43,177 bases of DNA from Myxococcota bacterium (GTDB taxonomy: Bacteria > Myxococcota > XYA12-FULL-58-9 > JABJBS01). A program made the translations under genes and the position numbers. A model generated the notes under the pieces. The model ran no database searches. It was not told the origin of the DNA and was given only the letters and a program-made list of their open reading frames with translations. The stretch spans positions 1-43,177 of the forward strand of contig JAYZAY010000016.1 of NCBI GenBank assembly GCA_036339465.1, given 5' to 3'. Positions 9,987-41,789 of this stretch are shown here, piece by piece (positions within the stretch are counted from its first letter, which is position 1; each line of letters opens with the position of its first letter).

Positions 9987-10910
9987 TCACATCGCTTGCT
10001 GGAATGTCTTTCGATGGGGAGGGCGGGATTCCATATCAACATCGGTTAGGGTCAGGGGGGGGAAATGCGCCTGGGAGCGGTCCTTTAACGTCATGCAGAT
10101 ACCCATATTGGCTTCCTCAATAACAATACCCTGATTCTGCTCTAACCACTCTTTAAACGTCAATTTACTCCCATCAGAGCAGGTCACCACGTTCCTTCCA
10201 ACTACGGCCATGTGAATATAAACCCTTCCCCCCTCAGCAAGGAGGTCAATGTATTTATTCAACACCGTAGCCGGCTTTGAAGAGTAAGGCAGAATCCCAA
10301 AGACATCCACGATCATCGACATCGCTCCAAAATCCCCCTTCAGTTCGTCGTTCTCGATATCTTCGAAAAATCGCCCCGTAAAGAGGGACACACCGCGCGC
10401 ATTGATCTTCTGCTTCGCGCTCGATGTCACAAAATAAGACACAGCGCTCACTTTAGCTCCATCGTCCCCGGCCGACTTCACGTAATCCATCACCGCCACA
10501 CACTGCCCCGCCCCTGCATCGAGGAGATGGTCCTTCGGACCCAACCCCGAGACTCTTTCCCCAAACTCCGCACCAAAGATGCGGGTGTATTTCTCGATGC
10601 CGCGTCGCACCACGAAGTAGTTTTCTCGAATTGTTGCCTTGGTCGCTAACGCGGCCTGTTGCCCAAGAGAGGGCACCGGCTTGAGGTGCTCGCAACGAAA
10701 AACAGACCCTACCGGGATCCCAAAAGGGTCCTCCCGAGGCGCCCATCGTTGTCTATTAACCCTCGGGTTCCACATGTCAGGGTCTGTTAAAGAGACGGGC
10801 CTCGCCTGATTAGCCAATGCCGCACCGGTGGCCAGAGCACCAACCCCCACTCCAATCCCCACCCCACGGGGCGGGATCCGGCCAATGAAAGAAGAAAGAA
10901 AACGTTGCAT
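9987..10910 (-). CDS. Class I SAM-dependent methyltransferase with basic/hydrophobic N-terminal extension
   Basis: Motif I LLDAGAG, later MIVDVFG and LLAEGGRVYI. Start set at ATG 10910, preceded by GGAGG. Confidence 0.75.
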   Translation of the reverse strand: MQRFLSSFIGRIPPRGVGIGVGVGALATGAALANQARPVSLTDPDMWNPRVNRQRWAPREDPFGIPVGSVFRCEHLKPVPSLGQQAALATKATIRENYFVVRRGIEKYTRIFGAEFGERVSGLGPKDHLLDAGAGQCVAVMDYVKSAGDDGAKVSAVSYFVTSSAKQKINARGVSLFTGRFFEDIENDELKGDFGAMSMIVDVFGILPYSSKPATVLNKYIDLLAEGGRVYIHMAVVGRNVVTCSDGSKLTFKEWLEQNQGIVIEEANMGICMTLKDRSQAHFPPLTLTDVDMESRPPHRKTFQQAM

Positions 10911-11000
10911 AAATTGAGCCTCCCGAGAAATAACATACAAGAATGGACTTGCTCCCGCGCTCACGCCACTAAGGCCGCACGGGGATGGGCCACATCTCGG

Positions 11001-11027
11001 TTATCGGCCCCAGCAACAACACGTTGT
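11001..11027 (-). promoter_or_regulatory. Putative sigma28 promoter ACAA-N15-GCCGATAA
   Basis: Perfect -10 and correctly spaced partial -35, about 90 nt upstream of ATG 10910. Confidence 0.45.
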
Positions 11028-11624
11028 TCATAATTTACGCTCAATTGGGCCGGGCTCATCCGCCAAAATGATGGCGGAGGAGGTCAAGGGTTGCCTCCCG
11101 AGCATTTTTAAAGCGGCGTGGTCCCCCTGCTCGCCCAGATAAATACTTTGCCCCCGCAAATCCTTATGGAGCATTTTACGATTTTCGAGTCGATAAGGTC
11201 CGGATTTTACCTCCACCGGAATTGCCTACCAACGCTTGGTAATATCAGCGTTTTTTGCGAAAACCAACTTCCCAAACAAAAGTGCTCCGCCCCTCATCCA
11301 CCTCGAAGAGTCCAAACACCGTCTTACCACCCTCTATTTCACACGCACCGGCCAGTGCGTCCTTTACCACTCCATAAGACTTTCTCCCTAGAAATCAGGA
11401 TTCATCTCTACCATCATCGCAATTGAGACGGAGGTCTTTACGTTTCTTGGCCCAAACCTACGCACTTTTACGCCCTTCGAAGAGCCGTTTATCAATTCGA
11501 GAGGAATAGCCGAAAAGACCAAACCTCCCCCTCCATCGGCGGCGCCCTTCATAATCGCTATAAGCTTCCGTTTGGGGATTGTTCCAGAAATACGCAATGA
11601 TGCCGGGGATCTCCCCCCCGTTTC

Positions 11625-13710: not shown

Positions 13711-14949
13711 TTAGAGAAAATGAACCGGGACCTGAATAACCCTGTCGCTTAATTGCTCCACTCTCTTACCCGAATTAATCAACAAACCAAATTCCAAATT
13801 CAGATCTGAAATTAGATTATTCAAACCTCTTAGGGCTTGTTTTTTAACCGTTGAGCCTAGTTTAATCTCCACAGGAATGATGCCGAATGGAGCATCTATC
13901 ACTAAATCAACTTCCGACTTATCCACAGTTCGGTAGTAAAAGAACTCAAGTTGGGTTTCACCAGTACATTGCAATCCTCGAACAATCTCCTCGATCACGA
14001 AACTTTCAAATGAAAAACCCGCCACAGGATGAATCAGCAAGTCATCAGAACTTTGAATCTTGAGAAAGTGGTGCAAGAGGCCTTGATCTCTAAAAAAACC
14101 CTTATTGGACTTTTGTATCTTCTTGAGACTATTTTTCTCAAAAGGAGAAAGATTTCTCCAGATGAATGTTTGATGAACAATATCAAGATAATCCTTTACC
14201 GTAGGTACGGTCACCTCCAACGCCCGTCCAATATCGCTCATATTCAGTTGATGACCAGAAAATTGAGCAAGAAGGGTGAGAAAACGCCTAAAATTGTGGA
14301 TATTGAGCTTAGGGAATAGCCCCCGAACATCGCGGTTGATGTAATTTGAAATGTAGTTTTCCATCCAAAATCTATGATAATTCTCGTTCTGCTCACTTTC
14401 GATAAGTGGCTCTGGAAATCCTCCCTTAAACCAAATATTCATCGACTCTCTCAAACTCACTTCTGGTTTCAGCGACTTAAAGTCCTCAATTACGACGTTT
14501 TTCGAGGTCAACATTTCGTAAAAGGTGGGAAGTTTCTTTTCGTAATATTCACTTCCTTTGAAGGGCCACATCTCAATTGTGCTGATCCGTCCGGCTAAGC
14601 TTTCGGTCAAACCTTTGATGATTTCAGGTGAGCTAGAACCTGTTAAAAGAAAACGCCCCTTCTTTTTGCGATCTGAATCGATAACGCCTCGCAAAACTTT
14701 GAATAGATCGGGATACTGTTGGGCCTCATCGATAATCAGACTTTCCGAATGGAGCCGAAAGAAAGCGACGGGGTCACTTGTGATGAGCTGATAATCGTCA
14801 GGGCTCTCCAAATCATAATATTTCCAATCCGGATGGAGGTCCTTCACCAAAGTCGATTTCCCGCACTGCCGGGGACCAATCAAGGCCACCACAGGAAATA
14901 TTCTTAACATTTCGTCGATTTTTGAGCTTAAGCCCCTTATTTTACCCAT
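13711..14949 (-). CDS. AAA+ ATPase, AAA_14 + DUF4143 family
   Basis: Walker A GPRQCGKST, Walker B IIDEAQ, LTGSSS, ESLAGR, GGFP, C-terminal EVDLV...PVEIK nuclease-like motif. Confidence 0.93.
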   Translation of the reverse strand: MGKIRGLSSKIDEMLRIFPVVALIGPRQCGKSTLVKDLHPDWKYYDLESPDDYQLITSDPVAFFRLHSESLIIDEAQQYPDLFKVLRGVIDSDRKKKGRFLLTGSSSPEIIKGLTESLAGRISTIEMWPFKGSEYYEKKLPTFYEMLTSKNVVIEDFKSLKPEVSLRESMNIWFKGGFPEPLIESEQNENYHRFWMENYISNYINRDVRGLFPKLNIHNFRRFLTLLAQFSGHQLNMSDIGRALEVTVPTVKDYLDIVHQTFIWRNLSPFEKNSLKKIQKSNKGFFRDQGLLHHFLKIQSSDDLLIHPVAGFSFESFVIEEIVRGLQCTGETQLEFFYYRTVDKSEVDLVIDAPFGIIPVEIKLGSTVKKQALRGLNNLISDLNLEFGLLINSGKRVEQLSDRVIQVPVHFL

Positions 14950-27981: not shown

Positions 27982-29413
27982 CCTCGACGCACGGGCGAAG
28001 CTTACGTGTCAACGGAATAAATAGTGCATCCCGAGCCTATGATAAGAATAAATAAAGACCCGTAACCTCGGTAACTTACGAAAAAGAGAAACAACACTCC
28101 ACAGCCATTCGTGCACTCAAAATCAACGAGACGAACTGAGTTCGACGCCTGCCTTTTGAGTCAAGTCCCCTCCCCTCCAATAAGCTCTTCGTGGTCCACT
28201 GAACGGTTCAGCCCCTCGGTGAAACACCGATGACTTCCTTGGCCCCTCACCAACATCGCAATAAAGCCGGGAAAAGAACCACACAAAGCGCACTAACTGT
28301 CCACACCGTGCATGCCACCCGGGAGATTCAAGATTCGAAGGTGATTCTTCGTTCTTAGAAACTCTAATAAGTTAATGCTCACTGAGGAATTCTTGGAATC
28401 CCACCGCACCCAACCAACCTCTCCAATAATCCCCCCCATGTTTCTCAAAAACAGCAAAAAGCCGGTAGCGCAGCAGTAGATGAAAGAAGTACGTCCATTG
28501 GCACATAAACCGGCACAAAGGTGTTGGCTATGGGTCCTGCGGCAAATCAGAGCTCCGGCAACCTGTTACCTTAGGCAGAGTCCATGGCGCTTACATGGAA
28601 ACGTTGCCAGATATTTATGGGAGCGGCAGTGGTACCGGCCGCGCACATAAACAGCCGACCACTCTAATACCACGACCGAAATACGCCCCCCCCCCCGCCA
28701 GGCGATGCCTAGCTTACTCTGACCAAAATCTGTAAGTGGGGGCGGGAGGGCTTCCAAGTGACCTGGTGGATTTGGTAGCGTGGATTTTGCTACCAGGCGG
28801 TGGCCTATGGGCTTAAGGCAACGCTAAAATCCGCAGTTAGGACTTGCGCACCTCGCCGATGGCCCTCTAAGGGAAGGCGATTTTCTTGTTTAAGTCACTT
28901 CAAAAAGAAAGGACAGGATTGTGAAACGAAACACCCTCCTCTCTTATGGGCAAACTCATGCTCATATCCGTCTCGATATCCGCTAATTTATCCTCAAATC
29001 GCCCAACAACCAAGGACAGAAGGTGGCCCTCCAGTAGGGGTCATCGATCGCCATGACCACCGGATGAAAGCTTCGGTGCCGATATCGGGACTTTTTTGCG
29101 AATGCCGCTGGCGAGAACTCGAGACGCTTTGGATATAGATAACAAAGTTCCGAGGTTCCTAAGACCGTGGCATTCATGGTGTACCGCTGCGATTGGATGC
29201 TTGGCGCTTTGGCCTATGGCTTATGGCATTGAATCAAAACACATACTACGACAGAAGGTACCCTGCTCCCTCATCAAACAATCCCATGTAATTCGTCTCT
29301 TAACCCCCATTCAAAGAACTCGCTCCCCTCCCCCATGGAAATCTGTTTGGAAACATTCGAGATACCTTAGCCTCCCCCTAAAAACGATTGTCGGGTTTCT
29401 CTTCGGATCCGCG

Positions 29414-31717
29414 CTAAACCACTTCTTCCCTTTGAGCTCTGAAGGCTTCTTTAAGCGCCTCCTCTGCAACTCGTCCACTTGGGCTAGCCACGCCCGCAAG
29501 ACGTCGCTTCTCGGGCTCTGGGAGTTCCGAAACCCAGAGTTGGTAATCGAGATTGAACTGCTGGTGTTTTATCTGTTTGAGGCGTTGTAATTTTTTCATT
29601 TTATCTTTGAGGATGGCCTGCTCGCGGGCTTCTTCTGGGGAAATATAAGAAGCGGGCTCTGGATAGTAGCCGCCATTCTTCTTTAGCTGAGAGATTGCCC
29701 AGGTTTTTGGTTTATCGATGCCTTCGGAGTGCTCGGGGCTTCCGAGGTAGAAACCGAGATGAAACAAGCCGGCTTTGAACTCTTCGAAACTCAACTCACC
29801 GGATAAAACGAATTTGCGATAAAGGGGTAGTACATCACTTAGACCAATCAAAAATTCGGTGAGTCCTGCGCGGTCGAGGGTTTCTTTTAATGCCTCGTCA
29901 ATTTCACTGCCTGCTTTCTTGTTGTCTGTTGTATTATTATAAATACTACTAACTACTACGTTCTGAGGTTCCGTTTGGAGGTTCTGTATAAGCCGTCGTC
30001 GGTTTCCGTAGGAGGTTCCGGTTGAATCGTTGCGGAGGTTCCAATTAACGCTGAGGGCAAGTACCGTAGTGTTGGGATTAATGATCTGGTAGCGCTTCCC
30101 TTTTGAGTACCTTCCTCTGGATATTTCGGTTTCTCGGATGAGCTGGAGGCGTCGGAGTTTAAAGACTAGTTTTTTCGCAGTGGCGGTGGTGGTTGCGAGT
30201 TCTGCGGCGAGTTCGTTGTAGGTGATCCATCGGGTTCCCTTGGTGGGGTCGTCTGATTGTGCTTCTTGCTGAGCGATGTATAGGAGAACGACCTGTTCCT
30301 GTGGAGAGGCGGGAAAGAAATGGTCGGTGAGGTTCTGGTCAGGAGCTCTGAGAGGTTCCGCTTGGCTTAATGGAGACCTTGTGGTTGAGGTTTCGATTAG
30401 GCGGCTTTGAGGTTCCGGTTGTGAATGAGTACCTAGGACTGGGGAATTGGAACCTTGGGGGGGGGAAATGGTACCTGAGGCCTGAGGTACCATTTGTACA
30501 TGAGAACCTCGAAGTGGAGGTACGGTTTGAGGGGGGTGAGGTTCCGGTTGGATGGATGGAGGTCCCGATTGAATTGGCTGAGGTCCCCGTTGAATAATTG
30601 GAGGTCCTGATTGGATTTCGGAGGTCCCAGTGAGAGGTTCTGATTGGGAATGGGAACCTAAGGATGGAGGTCCTGATTGGATTGGCTGAGGTTCTCTTTC
30701 GGTGACTTGAGGTCCTGATGGGTAATCGGAGGTTCCTGTTTCGGGTTCCGATTGGATTTTCAACGTTCCAATAACGAGTTCAGAAGGCCGCTTTGAGGTC
30801 CCGCTTGGAGGTTCTGATGGAGGCAATGGATTAAGGAATGGTGGTGACGATAGATAGGACGTAGTGTGGAGAGAGTCCTCCTCCTGGGGGTGTAAGGGCG
30901 CACTCCGATGGTCGGATTTAAGACGTGAAGCCGCTGTGGGAGGGTGTTCTTGCTGAGGGGTCGGGTCGATTGGCTGTTCTGCTTGGTGGTGTGCTTCCGT
31001 GCTAAGAGGTTCCGATTGGCGGTGTGCTTCCGTGCTAAGAGGTTCCGATTGGTGGTGTGCCTCCGCGCTAAGAGGTTCCGGTTGAGGGTGGGAAGTTTTG
31101 TATGTCTCGCTTGGGCTGGGTTGGGAGGTTCTCAAAGGAGGTTCCCATAGAGGAATGCCGGAGGTCGCGGCGACGGGGCTCCGTACGGCCCCGGCTGTCA
31201 GGCGAGGTTCTGTATGGGTTTGCGAGGTTCTAATTGGAGGTTCTGTATGGGTTCCCGAGGTTCTTATTGGAGGTTCTGGTTGCCGTTGGCATGCTACTAT
31301 CGGCGAGTCTGATCCTATTAATGAGGTTCCAGTTCCAGGTTCCGATTGATTCTCTAATCTCGCAACTGAGAGATCTAGATGGCTATCTGAGATTCCGACC
31401 ACAACACCTGATTGAGCATCCGAAGGTGTACTTCGAGCGCCTGATTGAGGTCCTGAGGTTCCGATTGGAGGTCCCGATTGCGGATCGAAGGCCTTGGCTG
31501 CCGTCTCGGCAGGGGAGCCCAGCGGTTTAGGTTCTGAGTTAAGGGGCGACAGGTAGGATTCCTGATTTGAGTGAGTCGCTTCGGCTGCAGCTCGCTTGTC
31601 GAGAAGGGGAGGGGAGACAGGGAGCGACCTTCTTCCGTTGTTAAAGGCGGATTGTTGCCTTGTGGTTTTCCTAGGCCGCCGACGAGGGGTCGAGGCCATA
31701 TCTAAGTCCATCGCCAT
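29414..31717 (-). CDS. Putative replication initiator / DNA-binding protein: long Pro/Ser/Glu repeat region, winged HTH, helical C-terminal domain
   Basis: 767 aa, 19 nt downstream of parA. wHTH QEQVVLLYI...ITYNELAAELATTTATAKKLVFKLRRLQLI...GKRYQI, then an SSIYNNTT linker; dense DNA repeats inside the gene. Confidence 0.65.
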   Translation of the reverse strand: MAMDLDMASTPRRRPRKTTRQQSAFNNGRRSLPVSPPLLDKRAAAEATHSNQESYLSPLNSEPKPLGSPAETAAKAFDPQSGPPIGTSGPQSGARSTPSDAQSGVVVGISDSHLDLSVARLENQSEPGTGTSLIGSDSPIVACQRQPEPPIRTSGTHTEPPIRTSQTHTEPRLTAGAVRSPVAATSGIPLWEPPLRTSQPSPSETYKTSHPQPEPLSAEAHHQSEPLSTEAHRQSEPLSTEAHHQAEQPIDPTPQQEHPPTAASRLKSDHRSAPLHPQEEDSLHTTSYLSSPPFLNPLPPSEPPSGTSKRPSELVIGTLKIQSEPETGTSDYPSGPQVTEREPQPIQSGPPSLGSHSQSEPLTGTSEIQSGPPIIQRGPQPIQSGPPSIQPEPHPPQTVPPLRGSHVQMVPQASGTISPPQGSNSPVLGTHSQPEPQSRLIETSTTRSPLSQAEPLRAPDQNLTDHFFPASPQEQVVLLYIAQQEAQSDDPTKGTRWITYNELAAELATTTATAKKLVFKLRRLQLIRETEISRGRYSKGKRYQIINPNTTVLALSVNWNLRNDSTGTSYGNRRRLIQNLQTEPQNVVVSSIYNNTTDNKKAGSEIDEALKETLDRAGLTEFLIGLSDVLPLYRKFVLSGELSFEEFKAGLFHLGFYLGSPEHSEGIDKPKTWAISQLKKNGGYYPEPASYISPEEAREQAILKDKMKKLQRLKQIKHQQFNLDYQLWVSELPEPEKRRLAGVASPSGRVAEEALKEAFRAQREEVV
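29911..30041. other. Candidate intragenic replication origin: four GAGGTTC repeats plus adjacent AT-rich tract
   Basis: GAGGTTC at 29965, 29978, 30012, 30035 next to TTGTATTATTATAAATACTACTAACTACTA, between the wHTH and C-terminal domain coding regions. Confidence 0.5.
29965..31474. repeat. Array of about 33 co-oriented GAGGT(T/C)C heptamers (iteron-like)
   Basis: Hand-counted copies, e.g. 30538, 30559, 30580, 30601, 30621, 30634, 30667, 30688, 30709, 30729, 31204, 31224, 31237, 31257, 31270; recurrent spacings 13, 20-21 and 33 bp. Confidence 0.93.
30983..31081. repeat. 3 x 33-bp tandem repeat (SEPLS[T/A]EAH[H/R]Q) within the array
   Basis: TTGG(T/C)GGTGTGC(T/C)TCCG(T/C)GCTAAGAGGTTCCG(A/G) three times. 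Confidence 0.95.
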
Positions 31718-31736
31718 GGGTCATCTGTCCTCGAGT

Positions 31737-32858
31737 TTAAGCTGCCTGTGTTTTGCCTGACTTTTGGGTCTGAATTTCCATTAGCCGGTCAAAGAGCTCT
31801 ATAAATATCTCTCGTTGTTCCGAAGCCAGCTTATGCTTCGGTTTGTATTCTAGTAGTGATTGATTGGTGGCGAGGGCTTCTTCGTAGGCAACCGAGGACT
31901 TGATCGGATTGCCAATGATTTTTCCTTGGTATCGCCGATAATATTCCATGAGAATCTCGCGATTTAACTTTGCCGTCGCAGAGAATCTCGTGGGAATGAA
32001 TAATTGGTCGATGGACATTGATGCATCTCTTTCAAACGTTTCCAGGCACGTGTGGAATACCTCAAGGGATTTGAACATCGTAATGGAGCATTCGATGGGG
32101 GAGAGCAGGGTGCCCTGAAGTTCCCCGATGGCGTAAATGGCGCTTTGGTTTAATAGGTTCCAGGCTGGGGGTAGGTCCAGCAGGATGACATCCCAGTTGC
32201 CACTTTCTTTGAGGGGTCTTACAATTTTATCGGTTACAAATTTCTCACGATGAATCTTACCGAATAGCTCTTGGTCGACTATGGATAATTCTGGGCTGGC
32301 CGGGAGGATGCCTAAATGATTCCCGAGACTATAATCCATTTCAATGAGTGATGAGACGTCCAAGTCTGGATTACGCAGGAGATCCAGTAACCCCACCGCA
32401 CATTCAACCTGTGATTCGAGGTAACGGTCAAGTTGTGCAGAGCTACCCTCGGGATTGGGGAGGTCTTTGTTGGTGACGGTTTCCAGGCCCCAGAGTGAGC
32501 TGAGATCTGTTTGTTGATCGAGGTCTACGCAAACGGTTTTTAGGCCACCCCCGATCGCGAAAATTCGCGCCAGCTGATGAACGGTGGAGGTTTTGTAAAC
32601 ACCACCTTTCTGAGACCAGCATGCAATGACCAGTGGTTCCTTGAGACGTGACTTATCGAGGAAGCCGTGGCCTGCTTCGGCTATTTCAGGTAGTTGTGGG
32701 GTTTTCCAAACGCGCGTTGGTTGCTTGGAAACACCGCGATGTACGCGATCAGCTTTTGGGAACCTATTGGTTTCCGACTCTTCTGCCCTAAGAATGGTCT
32801 GTTTGGTTGATTCGAAATGAAATATGGCTTCTAAGTCTCGATAGAGAAAATCTCGCAT
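31737..32858 (-). CDS. parA: ParA-family partition ATPase with N-terminal (type Ia-like) extension
   Basis: Deviant Walker A QKGGVYKTS, A' VDLDQQ, ILPAS, Walker B VILLDLPP; about 75-aa N-terminal extension; AGGAGG RBS. Confidence 0.93.
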   Translation of the reverse strand: MRDFLYRDLEAIFHFESTKQTILRAEESETNRFPKADRVHRGVSKQPTRVWKTPQLPEIAEAGHGFLDKSRLKEPLVIACWSQKGGVYKTSTVHQLARIFAIGGGLKTVCVDLDQQTDLSSLWGLETVTNKDLPNPEGSSAQLDRYLESQVECAVGLLDLLRNPDLDVSSLIEMDYSLGNHLGILPASPELSIVDQELFGKIHREKFVTDKIVRPLKESGNWDVILLDLPPAWNLLNQSAIYAIGELQGTLLSPIECSITMFKSLEVFHTCLETFERDASMSIDQLFIPTRFSATAKLNREILMEYYRRYQGKIIGNPIKSSVAYEEALATNQSLLEYKPKHKLASEQREIFIELFDRLMEIQTQKSGKTQAA

Positions 32859-33829
32859 AATGCATCCCTCCTGATGTTATATAGCTGAAGCCGACGCGCA
32901 TCGACAGAACTACACTCTCACCATATGTAACCGTTAGATGTAACGCAAACGCTTTGTTATAGTTTAATGCGTATTAGCTTATGCTCTATATGATTTGTTT
33001 ATATAAGCGTAGCGATCCCTGAATGGGAAAACCCAAAAATTCAACGGTGCGTTCCGGACGCACTCTCTTAAAACAGCCACAGGACTGTCTCTGGTGGGCG
33101 CTAATGACCGTCGTAATTTCCTTCTATGCTTTTGAACAACCGGCAGCACGGACGATCGGCTTAGATATAGGGCTTTTTTGGAGGTGCCCGATTTTGGTGT
33201 TCGGAGGGTCGACGTGTAGAACAACGATCCACGTGTTGCTCCCCCCCAGCCGCCCTTACTGATCTACCAACATTTATCGACCCCTCCGTTATTACTTCGG
33301 ATGAATGCTGGAGGTTGGTGCAAAGAAAAAGGCAGGGCAAGGGGCGTAATCACACGCTATGAACAAATGCGTGGGGCTGGCACAACCATTAGACACGCTC
33401 GGATCCATTCATCGACACCGGTCAAACACTCAAGCCTGCGTCCATTGGAACAGGCAGCGAATCCCAAATATTAGGCCAAATGGCATTTTTTTCTAACGAC
33501 TGACAACCACTGGTGTTCCAAACCCCGAATGGGATTTGATTTGCGTTGTGGCGTGTCACAGTGTTGGCGATGAAAGCCCCTTTGCACGCCAAATAGAGCC
33601 GGCAAAGGCCCTCCCTTGCCTTTTTTTCAAGCAAGCCCGCGGGGGGCCAACAATCATAATAAGCCAACGCCTGGGGCAATCCTTAACCGCGCTCAGAGCT
33701 ATTGCAAAGAGGTTGATTTGGGGTCAACGAGTGGCTGCTTGCTGCCGCCGATACCCCCCCACAGGGAAAATCGGGGTCGAACACTGAGGTCGATCTGGGT
33801 CCCCAACAGGACCGAGTTCTGTGGCGGAA

Positions 33830-34306
33830 TTAGAAACCAGCTCCGACGGCCAGACCATAGACATAGGAAACATGTCCATTGGCGTAATCCACACTTGCGA
33901 CAGGACCAACCGACATTGCTCCGAAGTGTAAATCGTAGCCCACACTTCCGCGAAGCCCGAAATTCGCCTTGTCGAGATTGGTTACAACAATGACTGGAGC
34001 TACCGCGAACCGCAGGCCACCGACTGGATGAACCACCACCATCGGCCCCCCAATTAGATGGGTTTCATCAAAGAAAGCGGCATCAACCAAGACCCCAAGC
34101 CCAACGAGACCGTCCATCACCGAAAGCCGATATTCGTAGTCAGCTCCCACCGTAATCCCATGGTGAACCACGTCGTCAATGGTATGAGTCGTCGCACCGA
34201 TGAACAACGCTGCATGGCTATGGTGTGCATGAACTTCCCCAGCCTGCGCCGATCCCGTCCACAGACCAAGCAATATTACAGCTACCAATAAAGACCGTCT
34301 TCCCAT
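33830..34306 (-). CDS. Exported small outer-membrane beta-barrel-like protein with His-rich N-terminus
   Basis: Signal peptide ending AQA, HAHHSH, alternating amphipathic strands, terminal Phe (VGAGF). Confidence 0.75.
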   Translation of the reverse strand: MGRRSLLVAVILLGLWTGSAQAGEVHAHHSHAALFIGATTHTIDDVVHHGITVGADYEYRLSVMDGLVGLGVLVDAAFFDETHLIGGPMVVVHPVGGLRFAVAPVIVVTNLDKANFGLRGSVGYDLHFGAMSVGPVASVDYANGHVSYVYGLAVGAGF

Positions 34307-34695
34307 CTTCTTTTTCCTGTGTGAGATTTGGCTGTTCTCTCATGACCCATGGCTTGAGGAAACCGCAGTCTGTTACGCTCGCCCGCCAAATCCGGCCAGC
34401 CTGGATTATCCTACCTATGGTAGCGCCCGGGTTGGTAGTAAAATACATGAAAAGCGAGGGGACCTCAAATGTCGCCGATGATGCACTTCACCACTTCGTG
34501 GTCATAATTGCTCTGAAGCATCCGCGCCCTTTAGCTCGAGACATTATCGGAATGATGCCGCCGAGAGAGAAAACGATACGACTCTTTGGCCAACCTCGGA
34601 GATGCAGAGCGAGCAAGCCCAAGTGTCTGGAAGGTGCCTGCCGCTCACCGCCGGTGTCGCTTAGAATCAACGCTTTTAGAGCATTTCTTGTCTCC

Positions 34696-34890
34696 TTACG
34701 AGCCGGCGCTGCATTCCACATGGTGTGTTTGTGGAAACAAACCACGAACTAAAGTGCCTTTGCTGAGCCGGTCCCATTGCCGAAGACATCGAATCCATCG
34801 CCCAAGCGTGTTTATCATAAGCTCCCAAGCCCAACCTACGCCGTAAAGGGGAGGATGAAGAGCAGAGGCCTCAAAACGTCTACCGCCCAT
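34696..34890 (-). pseudogene. 3' remnant of RlmD/TrmA-family RNA m5U methyltransferase
   Basis: GRRFEASALHPPLYG resembles RFD.VVLDPPR.G, NTLGRW resembles TLARD, and LFPQTHHVEC resembles DMFP.THHVE. The catalytic YVSC segment is missing. Confidence 0.5.
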
Positions 34891-35797
34891 TCCTGCTTAA
34901 GGGGCGAGTCTTCGTTTCTGTGCGCCAGCGCCAGGCATATTTTTGTGCACTGATATTTATGGGAGTGAGCAGGGCTTGGGTTGCAACAAAAAGCGGATGG
35001 TTTGGCACCGGTTAATGCATTGTGCGTATGAGATTGAGGTGCTCAAACGGCCCAAATGCAAGGGTGGCATGACCAACATGTCGTTTGTTATCTTGTAGAC
35101 AGTGGCCCGTGAATATTCTCAAGTATCATGGACTTGTTGGGGACTGACGGAAACGAAGGCCTTCGAGATTTAATTAAATGGATTTTGAGTATGTGTGGGG
35201 CTGCTTAGAGACAGGGTCAAGGATTGGTTTGTTCTTTTGCAGGGTGAACTGTTCAGCGGACGATTTTTTACGGTTTGCAGATTGGGAAGCTTCTTGCGGG
35301 TGGATATACGCGAATAATGTGATTGGTTTGATGGAGGTGGTGCGTTCTCAAATAATGATTCTCAGCGAATCTATTGGTGGTTGCGGCTTCCAAGTGATGG
35401 TTTTTATCTCGTGGGTTGTCTGTGGACCTTTTTGGTTTAACCCGATGTTTTTTTGTTTTTGGTGCTTTTCTTTAAGTGACGGAGCCTAGCTATTTGGGAA
35501 TGTGAGGATTTCCAAGGATGTCGTCAGTTTGTGTATGTTGGAGGTCCTGTGGGTTGGGGAAAGTGGGCCTTATAGAGTGTGGAGACCGGTCAAACTGAAT
35601 TCCTAGAGCATAAATTAAACAAAACCTGGCCTCGACTATTCCACTGACCCCCGGCTTTTGAATAAAATAACAGGAGCGATTGCGCGGTGGAACCGATACG
35701 CATGGGGTGGGCCTTTCTATGCTTTCGGGTCTTGTAGGAGGTCCTTGGTTATCAAGGACTTAACACATAGAATGATGAGGCTATTGTAGCGTGAACA

Positions 35798-39787: not shown

Positions 39788-41789
39788 GGGGGGCGTCGAT
39801 ACTTACCACGGTAATGGTTATTTGAGCCACGCTACTTTGAAGTACCCCATTTTCTTCGGTATCCCCATCGTCGGTGACGTAAAATTCAAAACCATCGTTG
39901 CCGTGGGTGTGCAAATTAGGATGATAGTACAGGCTACTCGAATTGAGTGGGAAGGGAAGAACATCGAAGGTAATGGCATGCCCGTCTGCGGTTTCGCTTA
40001 AGGTGCCTTGGTTGGGGAGGGAAGATAGATAATAACTGAGCGCCTGTATGTCTTCATCACCATCGTGGGTGACCAAGGTGATGGCTAAGGGGGTATTCTC
40101 ATGGGTTTCGAGGCTCTGACTTTTGGCGATGGGCTCGTCATTGGGCGCAGATACGGTGATGGTGAAGTTTTCCACCGTGAATTTCCCCAGGCCATCATCG
40201 GCGACGATATTTAAAGTGACGGTTCCCGATTTTGCTTCGATGGAGTGTAAGTTTAGTTTTGGTGGGGTGGTGTCGAGGGAATATTCGATAAGCGCAGAAC
40301 TAGATGGTTCCACGGAATAAGTAACCGTTTGTTCTTGTTCGTTGGTGGGCACAGCATCAGGTATAATCGAAATGGTGATTGTACCAAAATCCTCCATCAA
40401 GTCTTCAGGTTTTTCGATGGTAAAACGGGGGAGGTCGTTGATGGGAGAAACGTTAATCGTAATTTGCGCAGCGCTGCTTTCGTCAATGTCGCCTTGGTCG
40501 GTGCTCCCATTATTGGTGGCCTTAAAAGTGAAATTATCGTTGCCAAAATAGTCAGGATTGGGGAGGTAGTTGAGGCGGTCGGCGTCGAGTTGGATTGGGA
40601 GACCTGAGTCTTTGATGGCGGTGCCACCACTGCTTTTGGATAGAACGCCATGGGCGGGTAGGGCGGTCACGAAATAGTGGAGTAGCTCGTTGGCTTCGCT
40701 ATCAGCATAGGAAGCGGATAAAATTATTTCCACTTCTTTATCTTCATCAACGTCCACGTTTTGAGCTTCGGCCATGGGGGCAGCATTCACCGGATTGACG
40801 TTGATGATTATTTCCCCTGGGGCACTCGTATTCTGCCCTCCATTTTCAACACCACCAGTATCTTCCACCACGTAGAAGAAGTTGATGGGGCCGGCGTGGC
40901 TCGTCTCGGCGCTATAGTTAAGGTTGACAGAGTTGAGAACTAAGGGAAGTTGTTGGTTCAAAATGGGAGATTGTTCACCATCCTGAGTGAGTGTGCCAGG
41001 ACTTGGCAGCGATTTGAGAATATAGATGAGTGTTTGTTCTTCGTCTTCGTCTCCGTCGTCTCCGGTGAGGGTTATTTCAACGCTTTCACCCTTGTTGACT
41101 TCCACGGTTTGGTCTACTGCGTTGGGGGCGTCGTTTACCGGTGTGACGAGGATGGTGATGGTTCCCAGTTCGCTATCGTCTAATTTTAAGGCGCTTGGAG
41201 GTCCTACTCGCTTATTTTGCTTGACCACAAAAGTGAAAGTCTGTTCCTCGACACTGTTTGGGTGGGTCTGGAAAAAGATTGTTGGTGGGTCATTCCGTAT
41301 GTCTAAGGGTATTCGATTTTCGATGGGACCACTCTCGCTTATACGCAGGGAACCTGATTGGGGGTATGAGCGCAAGGAACAAAAGGTGTTGATTATTGAG
41401 TTGTCGGAGACTTCGGCCTTCAGGTAGATGGCGGTCGAAATGTCTTCAATGACGGTGACACTTTCCGATATTGCTAGCAAGGTGGTTTGGGATGTTTGAC
41501 CCGTGCTGTCTTCTGCTGACTGACTACCATCGGTGTTGACCGATTCGGATTCATCGATTTGAGACCCGGTCATGGTTGGATCGGTGTTGGTCGATTCGGA
41601 TTCATCGACTTGAGACTCGGTGTCGGTCGATTCGGATTCATCGATTTGAGACTCGGTCATGGTAGAATCGGTGTTGATCGCTTCGGATTCATCGAATTGA
41701 GGCGCGGTTATGGTAGAAAAACAGGCACCGGGAGAGAAAAGAACAAACCCTAGGAGATATAATTGGGGTCTCAGTCGGTAGAACAGCAT
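39783..41789 (-). CDS. Lipoprotein with tandem cadherin-like/bacterial Ig-like repeats (truncated by frameshift)
   Basis: Lipobox-like PGAC; repeats bounded by PVNDAP, PVNAAP, PINDLP, APNDEP; YLPNPDYFGNDNFTF. Confidence 0.88.
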   Translation of the reverse strand: MLFYRLRPQLYLLGFVLFSPGACFSTITAPQFDESEAINTDSTMTESQIDESESTDTESQVDESESTNTDPTMTGSQIDESESVNTDGSQSAEDSTGQTSQTTLLAISESVTVIEDISTAIYLKAEVSDNSIINTFCSLRSYPQSGSLRISESGPIENRIPLDIRNDPPTIFFQTHPNSVEEQTFTFVVKQNKRVGPPSALKLDDSELGTITILVTPVNDAPNAVDQTVEVNKGESVEITLTGDDGDEDEEQTLIYILKSLPSPGTLTQDGEQSPILNQQLPLVLNSVNLNYSAETSHAGPINFFYVVEDTGGVENGGQNTSAPGEIIINVNPVNAAPMAEAQNVDVDEDKEVEIILSASYADSEANELLHYFVTALPAHGVLSKSSGGTAIKDSGLPIQLDADRLNYLPNPDYFGNDNFTFKATNNGSTDQGDIDESSAAQITINVSPINDLPRFTIEKPEDLMEDFGTITISIIPDAVPTNEQEQTVTYSVEPSSSALIEYSLDTTPPKLNLHSIEAKSGTVTLNIVADDGLGKFTVENFTITVSAPNDEPIAKSQSLETHENTPLAITLVTHDGDEDIQALSYYLSSLPNQGTLSETADGHAITFDVLPFPLNSSSLYYHPNLHTHGNDGFEFYVTDDGDTEENGVLQSSVAQITITVVSIDAPL
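41529..41700. repeat. Four acidic Q(I/V/F)DESE repeats in the lipoprotein N-terminal tether
   Basis: TTCGGATTCATCGA at 41544, 41595, 41631, 41682 (spacing 51/36/51). Confidence 0.9.

Follow-up and report, generated by a model that had tools for sequence, protein, structure and literature searches.

A three-frame array of DNA sites inside a parA-linked gene of a Myxococcota bacterium, possibly a replication origin within its initiator gene

A 43,177-base contig of a Myxococcota bacterium (assembly GCA_036339465.1, contig JAYZAY010000016.1; this whole stretch is called the window below) carries, directly behind a gene for a ParA-type partition ATPase (parA), an open reading frame (ORF), here named X, whose long low-complexity region is filled with copies of the heptamer GRACCTC. 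Every available computational test favoured selection on this DNA word over selection on the encoded peptide, and the array has very probably been selected as double-stranded DNA. To one account of its role we give about an even chance, namely that it is an iteron-type replication origin which, together with an adjoining AT-rich element, lies inside the gene of its own initiator and probably doubles as a partition site; this account is put forward because repeated sites, an adjacent AT-rich element and a switch in strand asymmetry make up the anatomy of iteron origins. Behind it, in decreasing order of probability, rank a centromere alone, another role at the DNA level, a peptide repeat grown by slippage, and a signal acting in RNA.

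Counting GRACCTC on both strands of the window gave 43 copies compared with 12.05 ± 3.27 expected from 100 dinucleotide-preserving shuffles (largest value, 23), and 33 of the 43 lay on the minus strand between positions 29965 and 31474, all within ORF X. This agrees with an earlier note on the same DNA, which had estimated about 33 same-orientation copies in 1.5 kb where fewer than one would be expected by chance: the density over the entire assembly (102 contigs, 4,169,038 bases) was 0.23 per kb on both strands, or ~0.17 per 1.5 kb per strand, and no other 1.5-kb stretch of the 4.17-Mb assembly held six or more copies. The heptamer extends to about CCAATCGGAACCTC. Its reading in all three frames, also proposed in that note, was confirmed by frame tabulation, with 21 copies in frame 0 (encoding [EG]P; for example, at 29965 and 30601), 9 in frame 1 ([GR]TS; 30012, 31224 and 31257) and 3 in frame 2 ([QW]NL; 29978, 30035 and 30329), all eight of these positions having been cited correctly. 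Neighbouring copies were spaced by 13 (seven times), 21 (five), 20 (four) or 33 nucleotides (nt; three), the 13-nt pairs forming tandem units in which GAACCTCCAATCGGAACCTC encodes EPPIGTS; the frame is kept at spacings of 21, 33 and 13+20 because these are multiples of three. The suggestion that 21 and 33 nt represent two and three helical turns did not extend to the array as a whole, for which the Rayleigh power was 0.01 at a period of 10.5 and the best period, 6.6, scored 5.8, below the 95th percentile of random placement (7.35). At 31447–31461 two heptamers stand 8 nt apart (GGAACCTCAGGACCTC), the sole spacing outside the 13/20/21/33 set.

The codons of X carry the word further than its amino acids require. 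[EG]P dipeptides were encoded exactly as GAACCT or GGACCT in 23 of 26 cases, CCT accounting for 22% of proline codons in the genome (1037 long ORFs), and the residue following them varies (P, L, Q, H or R), with a codon that always starts with C, the seventh base of the heptamer. Permutation of synonymous codons with the protein held fixed yielded 8.75 ± 2.3 copies (maximum 17 in 2000 runs), and sampling from genome codon usage 3.6 ± 1.8, versus the 33 observed. The core holds 1.6–2.4 bit of information, synonymous sites included, and the flanks 0.1–0.5 bit, so that enough time must have passed for the units to diverge while the core stayed fixed. Among the 1758 open frames of at least 300 amino acids (aa) in the genome, ORF X shared first place in off-frame 7-mer copies with a giant ORF of 6177 aa on contig C26, and a paralogue of X on contig C3 ranked fourth. 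Because the words of individual loci had been chosen after the fact, an unbiased statistic was also applied to X and its relatives: in 6 of 6 loci, the count of the most frequent 8-mer and the highest number of off-frame copies were each greater than in any of 200 synonymous permutations. Furthermore, in the disordered-coding DNA of two orthologues from metagenome contigs (L006 and L007, with words marked on L006 only), 18 of 332 word columns differed (5.4%) compared with 54 of 408 non-word columns (13.2%; Fisher P=4e-4), and the array contained no frame-breaking insertion or deletion (indel).

To follow the word across relatives of X, an exhaustive phmmer search of 1.84 billion cluster representatives was made with residues 440–767, which returned 83 representatives of clusters at 50% identity, 47 of them at E≤1e-10; a near-length word-index protein search with the same residues gave no match. 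The family was present in 4 of the 401 genomes of a phylum scan, the present genome counted, and 36 pattern matches from a related-locus search of genome contigs included none that was confirmed. Neighbours of X in the ESM Atlas belong to HTH_36, RP-C and DnaD_N clusters, and the Atlas hints at Planctomycetota; both are leads only. The common layout comprises an N-terminal peptide with a basic RRRP-like patch, a variable repeat-word region, a winged helix, a word-bearing linker, a near-invariant ‘VSSS..NTTT' motif and the conserved helical C-terminal domain (C-domain) that this motif precedes; the words of the repeat region differ from protein to protein and its length is very variable.

DNA was compared from the paralogue on C3 (a 1003-aa ORF), from one other genome with a full-length locus (L004) and a partial one (L003), and from metagenome contigs L006–L011. 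The word of the paralogue is AAACCGRTCC (29 forward and 2 reverse copies), that of L004 AACCGGGGAC or CAACCGGGGACA (15 forward, divided 5/5/5 over the frames, and 8 reverse), that of L006 and L007 AACCGGGCAC (23 forward and 5 reverse; frames 7/8/8 in L006), with CAACCGGGCACAA common to L006, L007, L008 and L011, and that of L009 AACCGGAGAC or CAACCGGAGACAA (18 forward and 7 reverse); L010 has CAACTGGAGACAA and L003 has CAAAGGGGAAC. These words are 10–13 nt long, and most begin with CAAYCGG, as does the window's CAATCGGAACCTC. They are essentially confined to the ORF (0–2 matches outside it in 4–11 kb at ≤1 mismatch), are read in two to three frames at each locus, and recur, in all homologues examined, in the linker after the winged helix; reverse-complement copies were found in five of the six loci (2 to 8 copies each), and L006 contains a perfect palindrome, AACCGGGCACAA-N6-TTGTGCCCGGTT, along with 10/13-nt tandem units. 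The peptide ‘repeats' QPGT, TGHN and NRAQ are therefore one DNA word in three frames, and the proteins of the six loci are only 20–40% identical. Conservation of the peptide with free synonymous variation among homologues had been named in the earlier note as the outcome that would speak against a DNA-level explanation; the opposite was observed, each homologue keeping a DNA word of its own and not the peptide, and codon permutation, homologue words and slower word columns all agree with its claim that the word is selected as DNA.

The paralogue belongs to a second parA–X module of the same genome (C3:30904–34973, equivalent to L013:3904–7973). By eye rather than by computation, each of its words AAACCGRTCCT and AGGATCAGTT is in part the reverse complement of the other, so that the peptide repeat KPVLxxEDQL would be an imperfect inverted DNA repeat.

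Low-complexity regions evolve by replication slippage, and the tandem 13-nt units, the 33-nt (11-aa) repeats and the recurring peptides EPPxGTS and QSEP are what would be expected if a disordered repeat had grown in this way, with identical codons left by recent duplication and frame changes tolerated. Such a protein-level or neutral history is nevertheless very unlikely: flanks have diverged around a core that is fixed even at synonymous sites, lineage-specific words behave alike in 6 of 6 loci, reverse-complement copies cannot be one peptide, word columns change more slowly than spacers, and array indels are absent both between L006 and L007 and among marine metagenome contigs. The latter, from at least three studies of marine or seawater samples, contain the window locus at ≥99% identity, with three single-nucleotide polymorphisms (29600, 29880 and 30282), none of them in a word copy; being short and shallow, they give little information on constraint and show that the array assembles reproducibly. 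Least probable of all is a role of the word in mRNA, whether bound by an RNA-binding protein, folded into a structure or pausing translation. The shared orientation of 33 of the 34 copies in the window ORF would suit this, whereas homologues carry words on both strands (8 of 23 copies in L004 and 7 of 25 in L009) and perfect palindromes with spacers; reverse-complement copies and palindromes therefore argue against an mRNA signal and fit a double-stranded DNA site read by a dimer.

The features of the locus are collected in Table 1. Frame 0 of ORF X runs through 2301 nt without a stop codon, whereas the remaining minus-strand frames contain 25 and 28. These counts, the conserved N-terminal peptide and a frame that is open in all homologues spoke against a frame that had stayed open by chance across non-coding repeats, and this idea was rejected. 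The start of the protein, of the type M-x-x-x-L/D-D...RRRP, is common to X, the paralogue and the homologues, and ORF X matched no Pfam family at E≤0.1 and no NCBIfam family. The segment after the low-complexity region was modelled with AlphaFold2 (AF2) at a predicted local distance difference test (pLDDT) value of 86, with elements H18–33, H46–53, H57–69, E73–80 and E85–91. Its alignment to ArsR and MarR chains by VIA-align (model residues 4–114) gave Z values of 9–10 with root-mean-square deviations of 1.8–5.3 over 67–97 residues, and homologues of X matched HTH_24, MarR and Crp in Pfam; a profile search against PDB sequences matched the winged helix only, and weakly, with none for the C-domain. 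As modelled, the putative DNA-binding domain is thus a MarR/ArsR-like winged helix consisting of a three-helix bundle and a beta-hairpin wing, and the linker that follows is predicted to be disordered (pLDDT<50).

Table 1. Positions of the parts of ORF X, its repeat arrays and adjoining features in the window.
Feature	Position	Strand	Description
ParA-type partition ATPase gene	31737..32858	minus	373 aa; 20 nt upstream of ORF X
ORF X	29414..31717	minus	767 aa; in order: basic N-terminal peptide, ~450-aa repeat-encoded low-complexity region, winged helix, linker, helical C-domain
N-terminal peptide	31667..31717	minus	MAMDLDMASTPRRRPRK; conserved; candidate ParA-contacting basic peptide
5' array	30329..31474	minus	29 GRACCTC copies (extended CCAATCGGAACCTC), ahead of the winged-helix coding part
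Sole opposite-orientation heptamer inside ORF X	30504..30510	plus	
Winged helix-turn-helix coding segment	30032..30304	minus	presumed recognition helix TATAKKLVFKLRR at 30149-30187
Post-winged-helix array	29965..30041	minus	4 copies (frames 2, 1, 2, 0) in the linker
AT-rich element	29921..29959	minus	39 nt, 26% GC, GTA GTA GTT AGT AGT ATT TAT AAT AAT ACA ACA GAC AAC, encoding VVVSSIYNNTTDN; candidate DNA-unwinding element
Helical C-terminal domain	29417..29920	minus	168 aa; best-conserved protein part of the family; AF2 pLDDT 96.5
Lone heptamer	29152..29158	minus	256 nt downstream of the X stop codon
GC-skew sign-change zone	29414..35797	.	cumulative minimum at 29,512

If the winged helix reads the word, the two might be expected to change together, as the earlier note had proposed for the motif and the recognition helix. 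L009 and L010 have the helix WKG[ML][KR]KQI and the word GGAGACAA in common, and the word GGGCACAA is common to L006 and L011, whose helices are related. In P0001, the closest relative of the window protein, the C-domain is ~88% identical, whereas the winged helix and linker are only ~25% identical and the word is CCGGACACA; judged from the sequences, the pair would be a naturally occurring exchange of modules that altered the helix along with its word. These cases are in line with the proposal; as they come from ~8 loci, few and related, the co-variation is suggestive.

Next to the four copies in the linker, on their downstream side, lies the AT-rich element, which encodes the ‘VSSS..NTTT' motif. 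The corresponding DNA is 39–45 nt long with 25–33% G+C compared with 42–59% for the ORFs, in 10 of 10 loci (~8 of them independent), and its codons are chosen accordingly, serine being encoded by AGT in 32 of 35 cases versus 35 of 380 in the remainder of these ORFs and threonine by ACA or ACT in 33 of 36 versus 48% elsewhere. The motif is better explained as DNA than as peptide, and the element is a candidate for the site of DNA unwinding. Marine contigs resembling P0001 match the window only over this ~40-nt element (29920–29961) and have, on either side of it, their own word and their own C-domain start.

Guanine–cytosine (GC) skew along the contig was negative over 0–29 kb (−0.06 to −0.12) and positive over ~35–43 kb (+0.15 to +0.17), independent of gene strand. 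Only 3 of 75 contigs of at least 15 kb changed sign with both arms beyond 0.05, and two of these carry parA–X modules. At the 3' end of the paralogue on C3 the skew goes from −0.2 up to about 0; the flanking skews of five other loci all rise from left to right, over flanks of 0.3–3.9 kb that are too short to count. The genes dnaA and parB of this genome lie on another contig, C30. The third sign-changing contig, C23, splits at ~11,600, and the adjoining 383-aa ORF (10054–11325) has an HUH-like ‘HFHLMM' motif, typical of transposases of the Y1/RAYT type. About 10 copies of GGCACTCAA, in units of 9, 14 and 16 nt and in three frames, are spread over the 5' end of this ORF and the DNA before it, and the ORF has no sequence relation to the X family.

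Taken together, these features would be accounted for as follows if the origin lies within the initiator gene. The winged helix of X would bind the repeats as double-stranded DNA sites, namely the direct repeats that flank its own coding segment, and the loaded array would destabilise the AT-rich element just downstream, and the helical C-domain would recruit host replication factors. Site-bound X, co-transcribed with ParA, would probably also serve as the adaptor between ParA and its cargo, the array doubling as the centromere. The long Pro/Ser/Gln/Glu-rich N-terminal region, which the earlier note took to be a by-product of the array, would then be set mainly by the sequence of the sites and the need for an open frame, and may have been co-opted as well, for example as a tether. 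Recognition of the word by X, a start of replication at the module and contact between X and ParA are all inferences. Direct-repeat sites of the kind found at iteron origins are present as 33 copies in the window and 15–29 forward copies in the other five loci, and an A+T-rich element (26% G+C in the window) adjoins them in 10 of 10 loci. As to the choice between iterons and a centromere, left open in the earlier note, the AT-rich element and the GC-skew switch lean toward an origin. The fuller proposal, in which one protein is both initiator and ParA adaptor, one translated array is both origin and centromere and the parA–X pair is a complete maintenance cassette, is put forward tentatively.

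Several observations weigh against placing an origin here. The gene directly after parA is classically that of a centromere-binding protein and not of an initiator. The skew switch can be placed only within 29.4–35.8 kb, because the composition of X itself (+0.32 over the repeat span) pulls the minimum, and on C3 the best split lies at 41,000, 6 kb beyond the paralogue. Neither an initiator family for X among curated families nor a convincing solved relative of the C-domain fold was found (best Foldseek E value 1.1; VIA-align Z at most 5.6, for the Hda lid, followed by 5.2 for the DnaD domain 2i5u and 5.1 for the DnaA lid, all under the noise level of the tool). The loci in which helix and word could be followed together are few and related, and the contigs, which are fragments of a metagenome-assembled genome, have ends without the overlap expected of a circle. 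Finally, the 13 matches to the DnaA box TTATCCACA (≤1 mismatch, 43 kb) are scattered, with no cluster at the locus; DnaA boxes are not needed by all iteron origins (PMC3155836).

The ParA gene matched Pfam AAA_31 (2.9e-17) and CbiA (1.6e-10), with sub-threshold NCBIfam matches to the RepA, ParA and SopA partition ATPases, and parA lay directly upstream of X on the same strand in all six loci with upstream DNA, at gaps of 0–20 nt. A role as ParA adaptor would suit the invariable pairing as well as the basic N-terminal peptide, through which X may contact ParA; a predicted complex of two ParA, two ATP and residues 1–60 of X scored 0.00, which gives no verdict and counts neither way. The same arrangement, in which X stands directly downstream of parA in one operon (6 of 6 loci), is what a ParA partner would show, and it is the main support for a centromere-only role, in which X would be a winged-helix partner replacing ParB, the array a parS/parC-like centromere, and a separate origin nearby would be served by another initiator or by DnaA. 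The conserved basic peptide would suit this role, adjacent-site arrays are a known way of concentrating centromere-binding proteins, and ParT of the plasmid SCP2 offers a precedent for a parS located in the gene of its binding protein (bioRxiv 10.1101/2024.05.08.592561). The skew switch is compatible with it too, because partition loci usually lie near origins. Set against this are the absence, with the module, of a second conserved candidate initiator gene (parA was the only conserved gene around it in the loci compared), the conserved AT-rich element by the linker repeats, which would be left unexplained, and the order of DNA-binding domain, site-bearing linker and C-domain, which is that of initiators. 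Moreover, X has neither a ParB_N domain, the only match in the genome being on C30, nor the ribbon-helix-helix of type Ib adaptors (ParG, omega). We regard a centromere alone as possible, at a markedly lower probability than an origin within the initiator gene.

In iteron plasmids, additional arrays such as incA of P1 exert control from a position next to the origin, and the array of X might likewise consist of operators, of copy-control or ‘handcuffing' sites or of sites for a nucleoid-like coat, for X or for another protein, and be neither origin nor centromere. The inverted pairs of L006 are typical of operator sites, and the 5' array varies from ~0 to ~640 aa equivalents across homologues, as would be expected of an accessory array. 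This role is improbable in view of the promoter region upstream of parA, which holds no copy of the word, and of the skew switch and AT-rich element, for which it offers no explanation.

RepA_N was not matched by X (E≤0.1), nor was it among the 25 most-matched families of 15 homologues (E≤1) or of 70 (E≤0.01). Weak leads to initiators were RP-C in 1 of 15 members (E 0.12), RepL in 1 of 70 (1.5e-5), DnaD_N in 1 of 70 (0.008) and HTH_36 in 3 of 70 (best 4.4e-5), and Foldseek returned the DnaD model 9a5c_B at 2.4e-3 with a poor template modelling (TM) score; the DnaD, HTH_36 and RP-C leads fall short of significance. RepA_N replicons of Gram-positive plasmids include pAD1, pSK1 and pLS32 (PMC3155836), and in RepA of pSK41 a central linker joins the N-terminal DNA-binding domain to the C-terminal domain; the repeated Rep boxes of the origin are central in rep, and the linker, although encoded by origin DNA, is dispensable as protein (PMC5703833). 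X is like pSK41 RepA in having sites in the linker between its DNA-binding domain and C-domain. Unlike pSK41, with four boxes and a linker of ~80 aa, it has 33 copies in 1.5 kb, the majority of which precede the DNA-binding domain; it also differs in lacking a RepA_N match and in being co-transcribed with ParA, and the excerpt on pSK41 does not describe reading in three frames and on two strands.

In phage lambda, an AT-rich stretch follows the O sites. The lambda origin maps inside the initiator gene O, with repeated O-binding sites (PMC5043065), and X resembles O in the placing of sites inside the gene of a putative initiator and in the linker layout, whereas lambda has four 19-bp inverted-repeat sites and no ParA partner, and X is without a sequence match to phage O families. 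The repABC operons of alpha-proteobacterial plasmids and chromids are headed by a ParA-type RepA and have their origin inside repC, with an A+T-rich region in which silent changes that lowered A+T abolished replication (PMC3155836); a ParA-type gene likewise heads the X operon, and the AT-rich element lies in the gene of the second protein. In contrast, repABC has a separate ParB-type RepB and its repC is without iterons (PMC3155836), and the RP-C lead of the X family is weak. In the ParT–parS system of the Streptomyces plasmid SCP2, the ParA partner binds a centromere that lies within its own coding sequence (bioRxiv 10.1101/2024.05.08.592561). This centromere consists of a single 18-bp inverted repeat bound by ParT with a ParB-like helix-turn-helix, unlike the array of X with its MarR/ArsR-like winged helix and unrelated C-domain. 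A parS site also lies inside spo0J of Bacillus subtilis. Iteron plasmids such as P1 (incC/incA) and F (ori2/incC) have direct-repeat arrays on both sides of the DNA-binding function, with inverted copies as operators; those arrays are intergenic, whereas the arrays of X are translated.

By sequence, X is a member of none of RepA_N, phage O or ParB and has no more than a weak lead to RepC, and it would work like the origins and centromeres embedded in ORFs. New are the protein family itself, which has neither a Pfam nor an NCBIfam model and occurs in marine metagenomes, the 15–33 sites per gene over up to 2.3 kb in the six loci with DNA, and the position of most sites upstream of the DNA-binding domain, which makes a long low-complexity region; new as well are sites in three frames and on both strands, and an unwinding-type element as the best-conserved ‘peptide' of the family. 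A full-text literature search, whose coverage excludes most subscription journals, gave no account of the X family or of translated site arrays in three frames.

The surroundings of the module differ between loci. An ankyrin-repeat protein gene follows X in the near-identical L007 (5249–5782) and L008 (939–1472), and L006 has a different downstream gene despite 93% identity across X, so that the module occurs in variable contexts. In L009 a complete dnaN gene (964–2166; the DNA polymerase III beta clamp, with three Pfam domains) lies directly upstream of parA–X on the same strand, which suggests that this replicon carries its own clamp gene. A gene for an AAA_14/DUF4143 ATPase is found both in the window (13711–14949, 15 kb from X) and directly downstream of X in L010 (897–2153), perhaps by coincidence.

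The known origins and centromeres inside the gene of their binding protein amount to a handful of systems with few sites and a short linker, and in X disordered regions of up to several hundred residues are generated by the sites, a natural case of overlapping codes in which the sequence of a protein segment is set by DNA-binding specificity. Annotators and surveys of repeat proteins would misread such regions as peptide repeats. Should X prove to be both initiator and ParA adaptor, several hundred of its residues would be dictated by DNA sites, site, recognition helix and ‘peptide repeats' would form a single co-evolving unit, and the invariant SSS...TTT of the family would be an unwinding element. 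ParA and one further protein may make up a minimal module that maintains replicons in little-studied marine bacteria; if functional, it could seed vectors for organisms without genetic tools.

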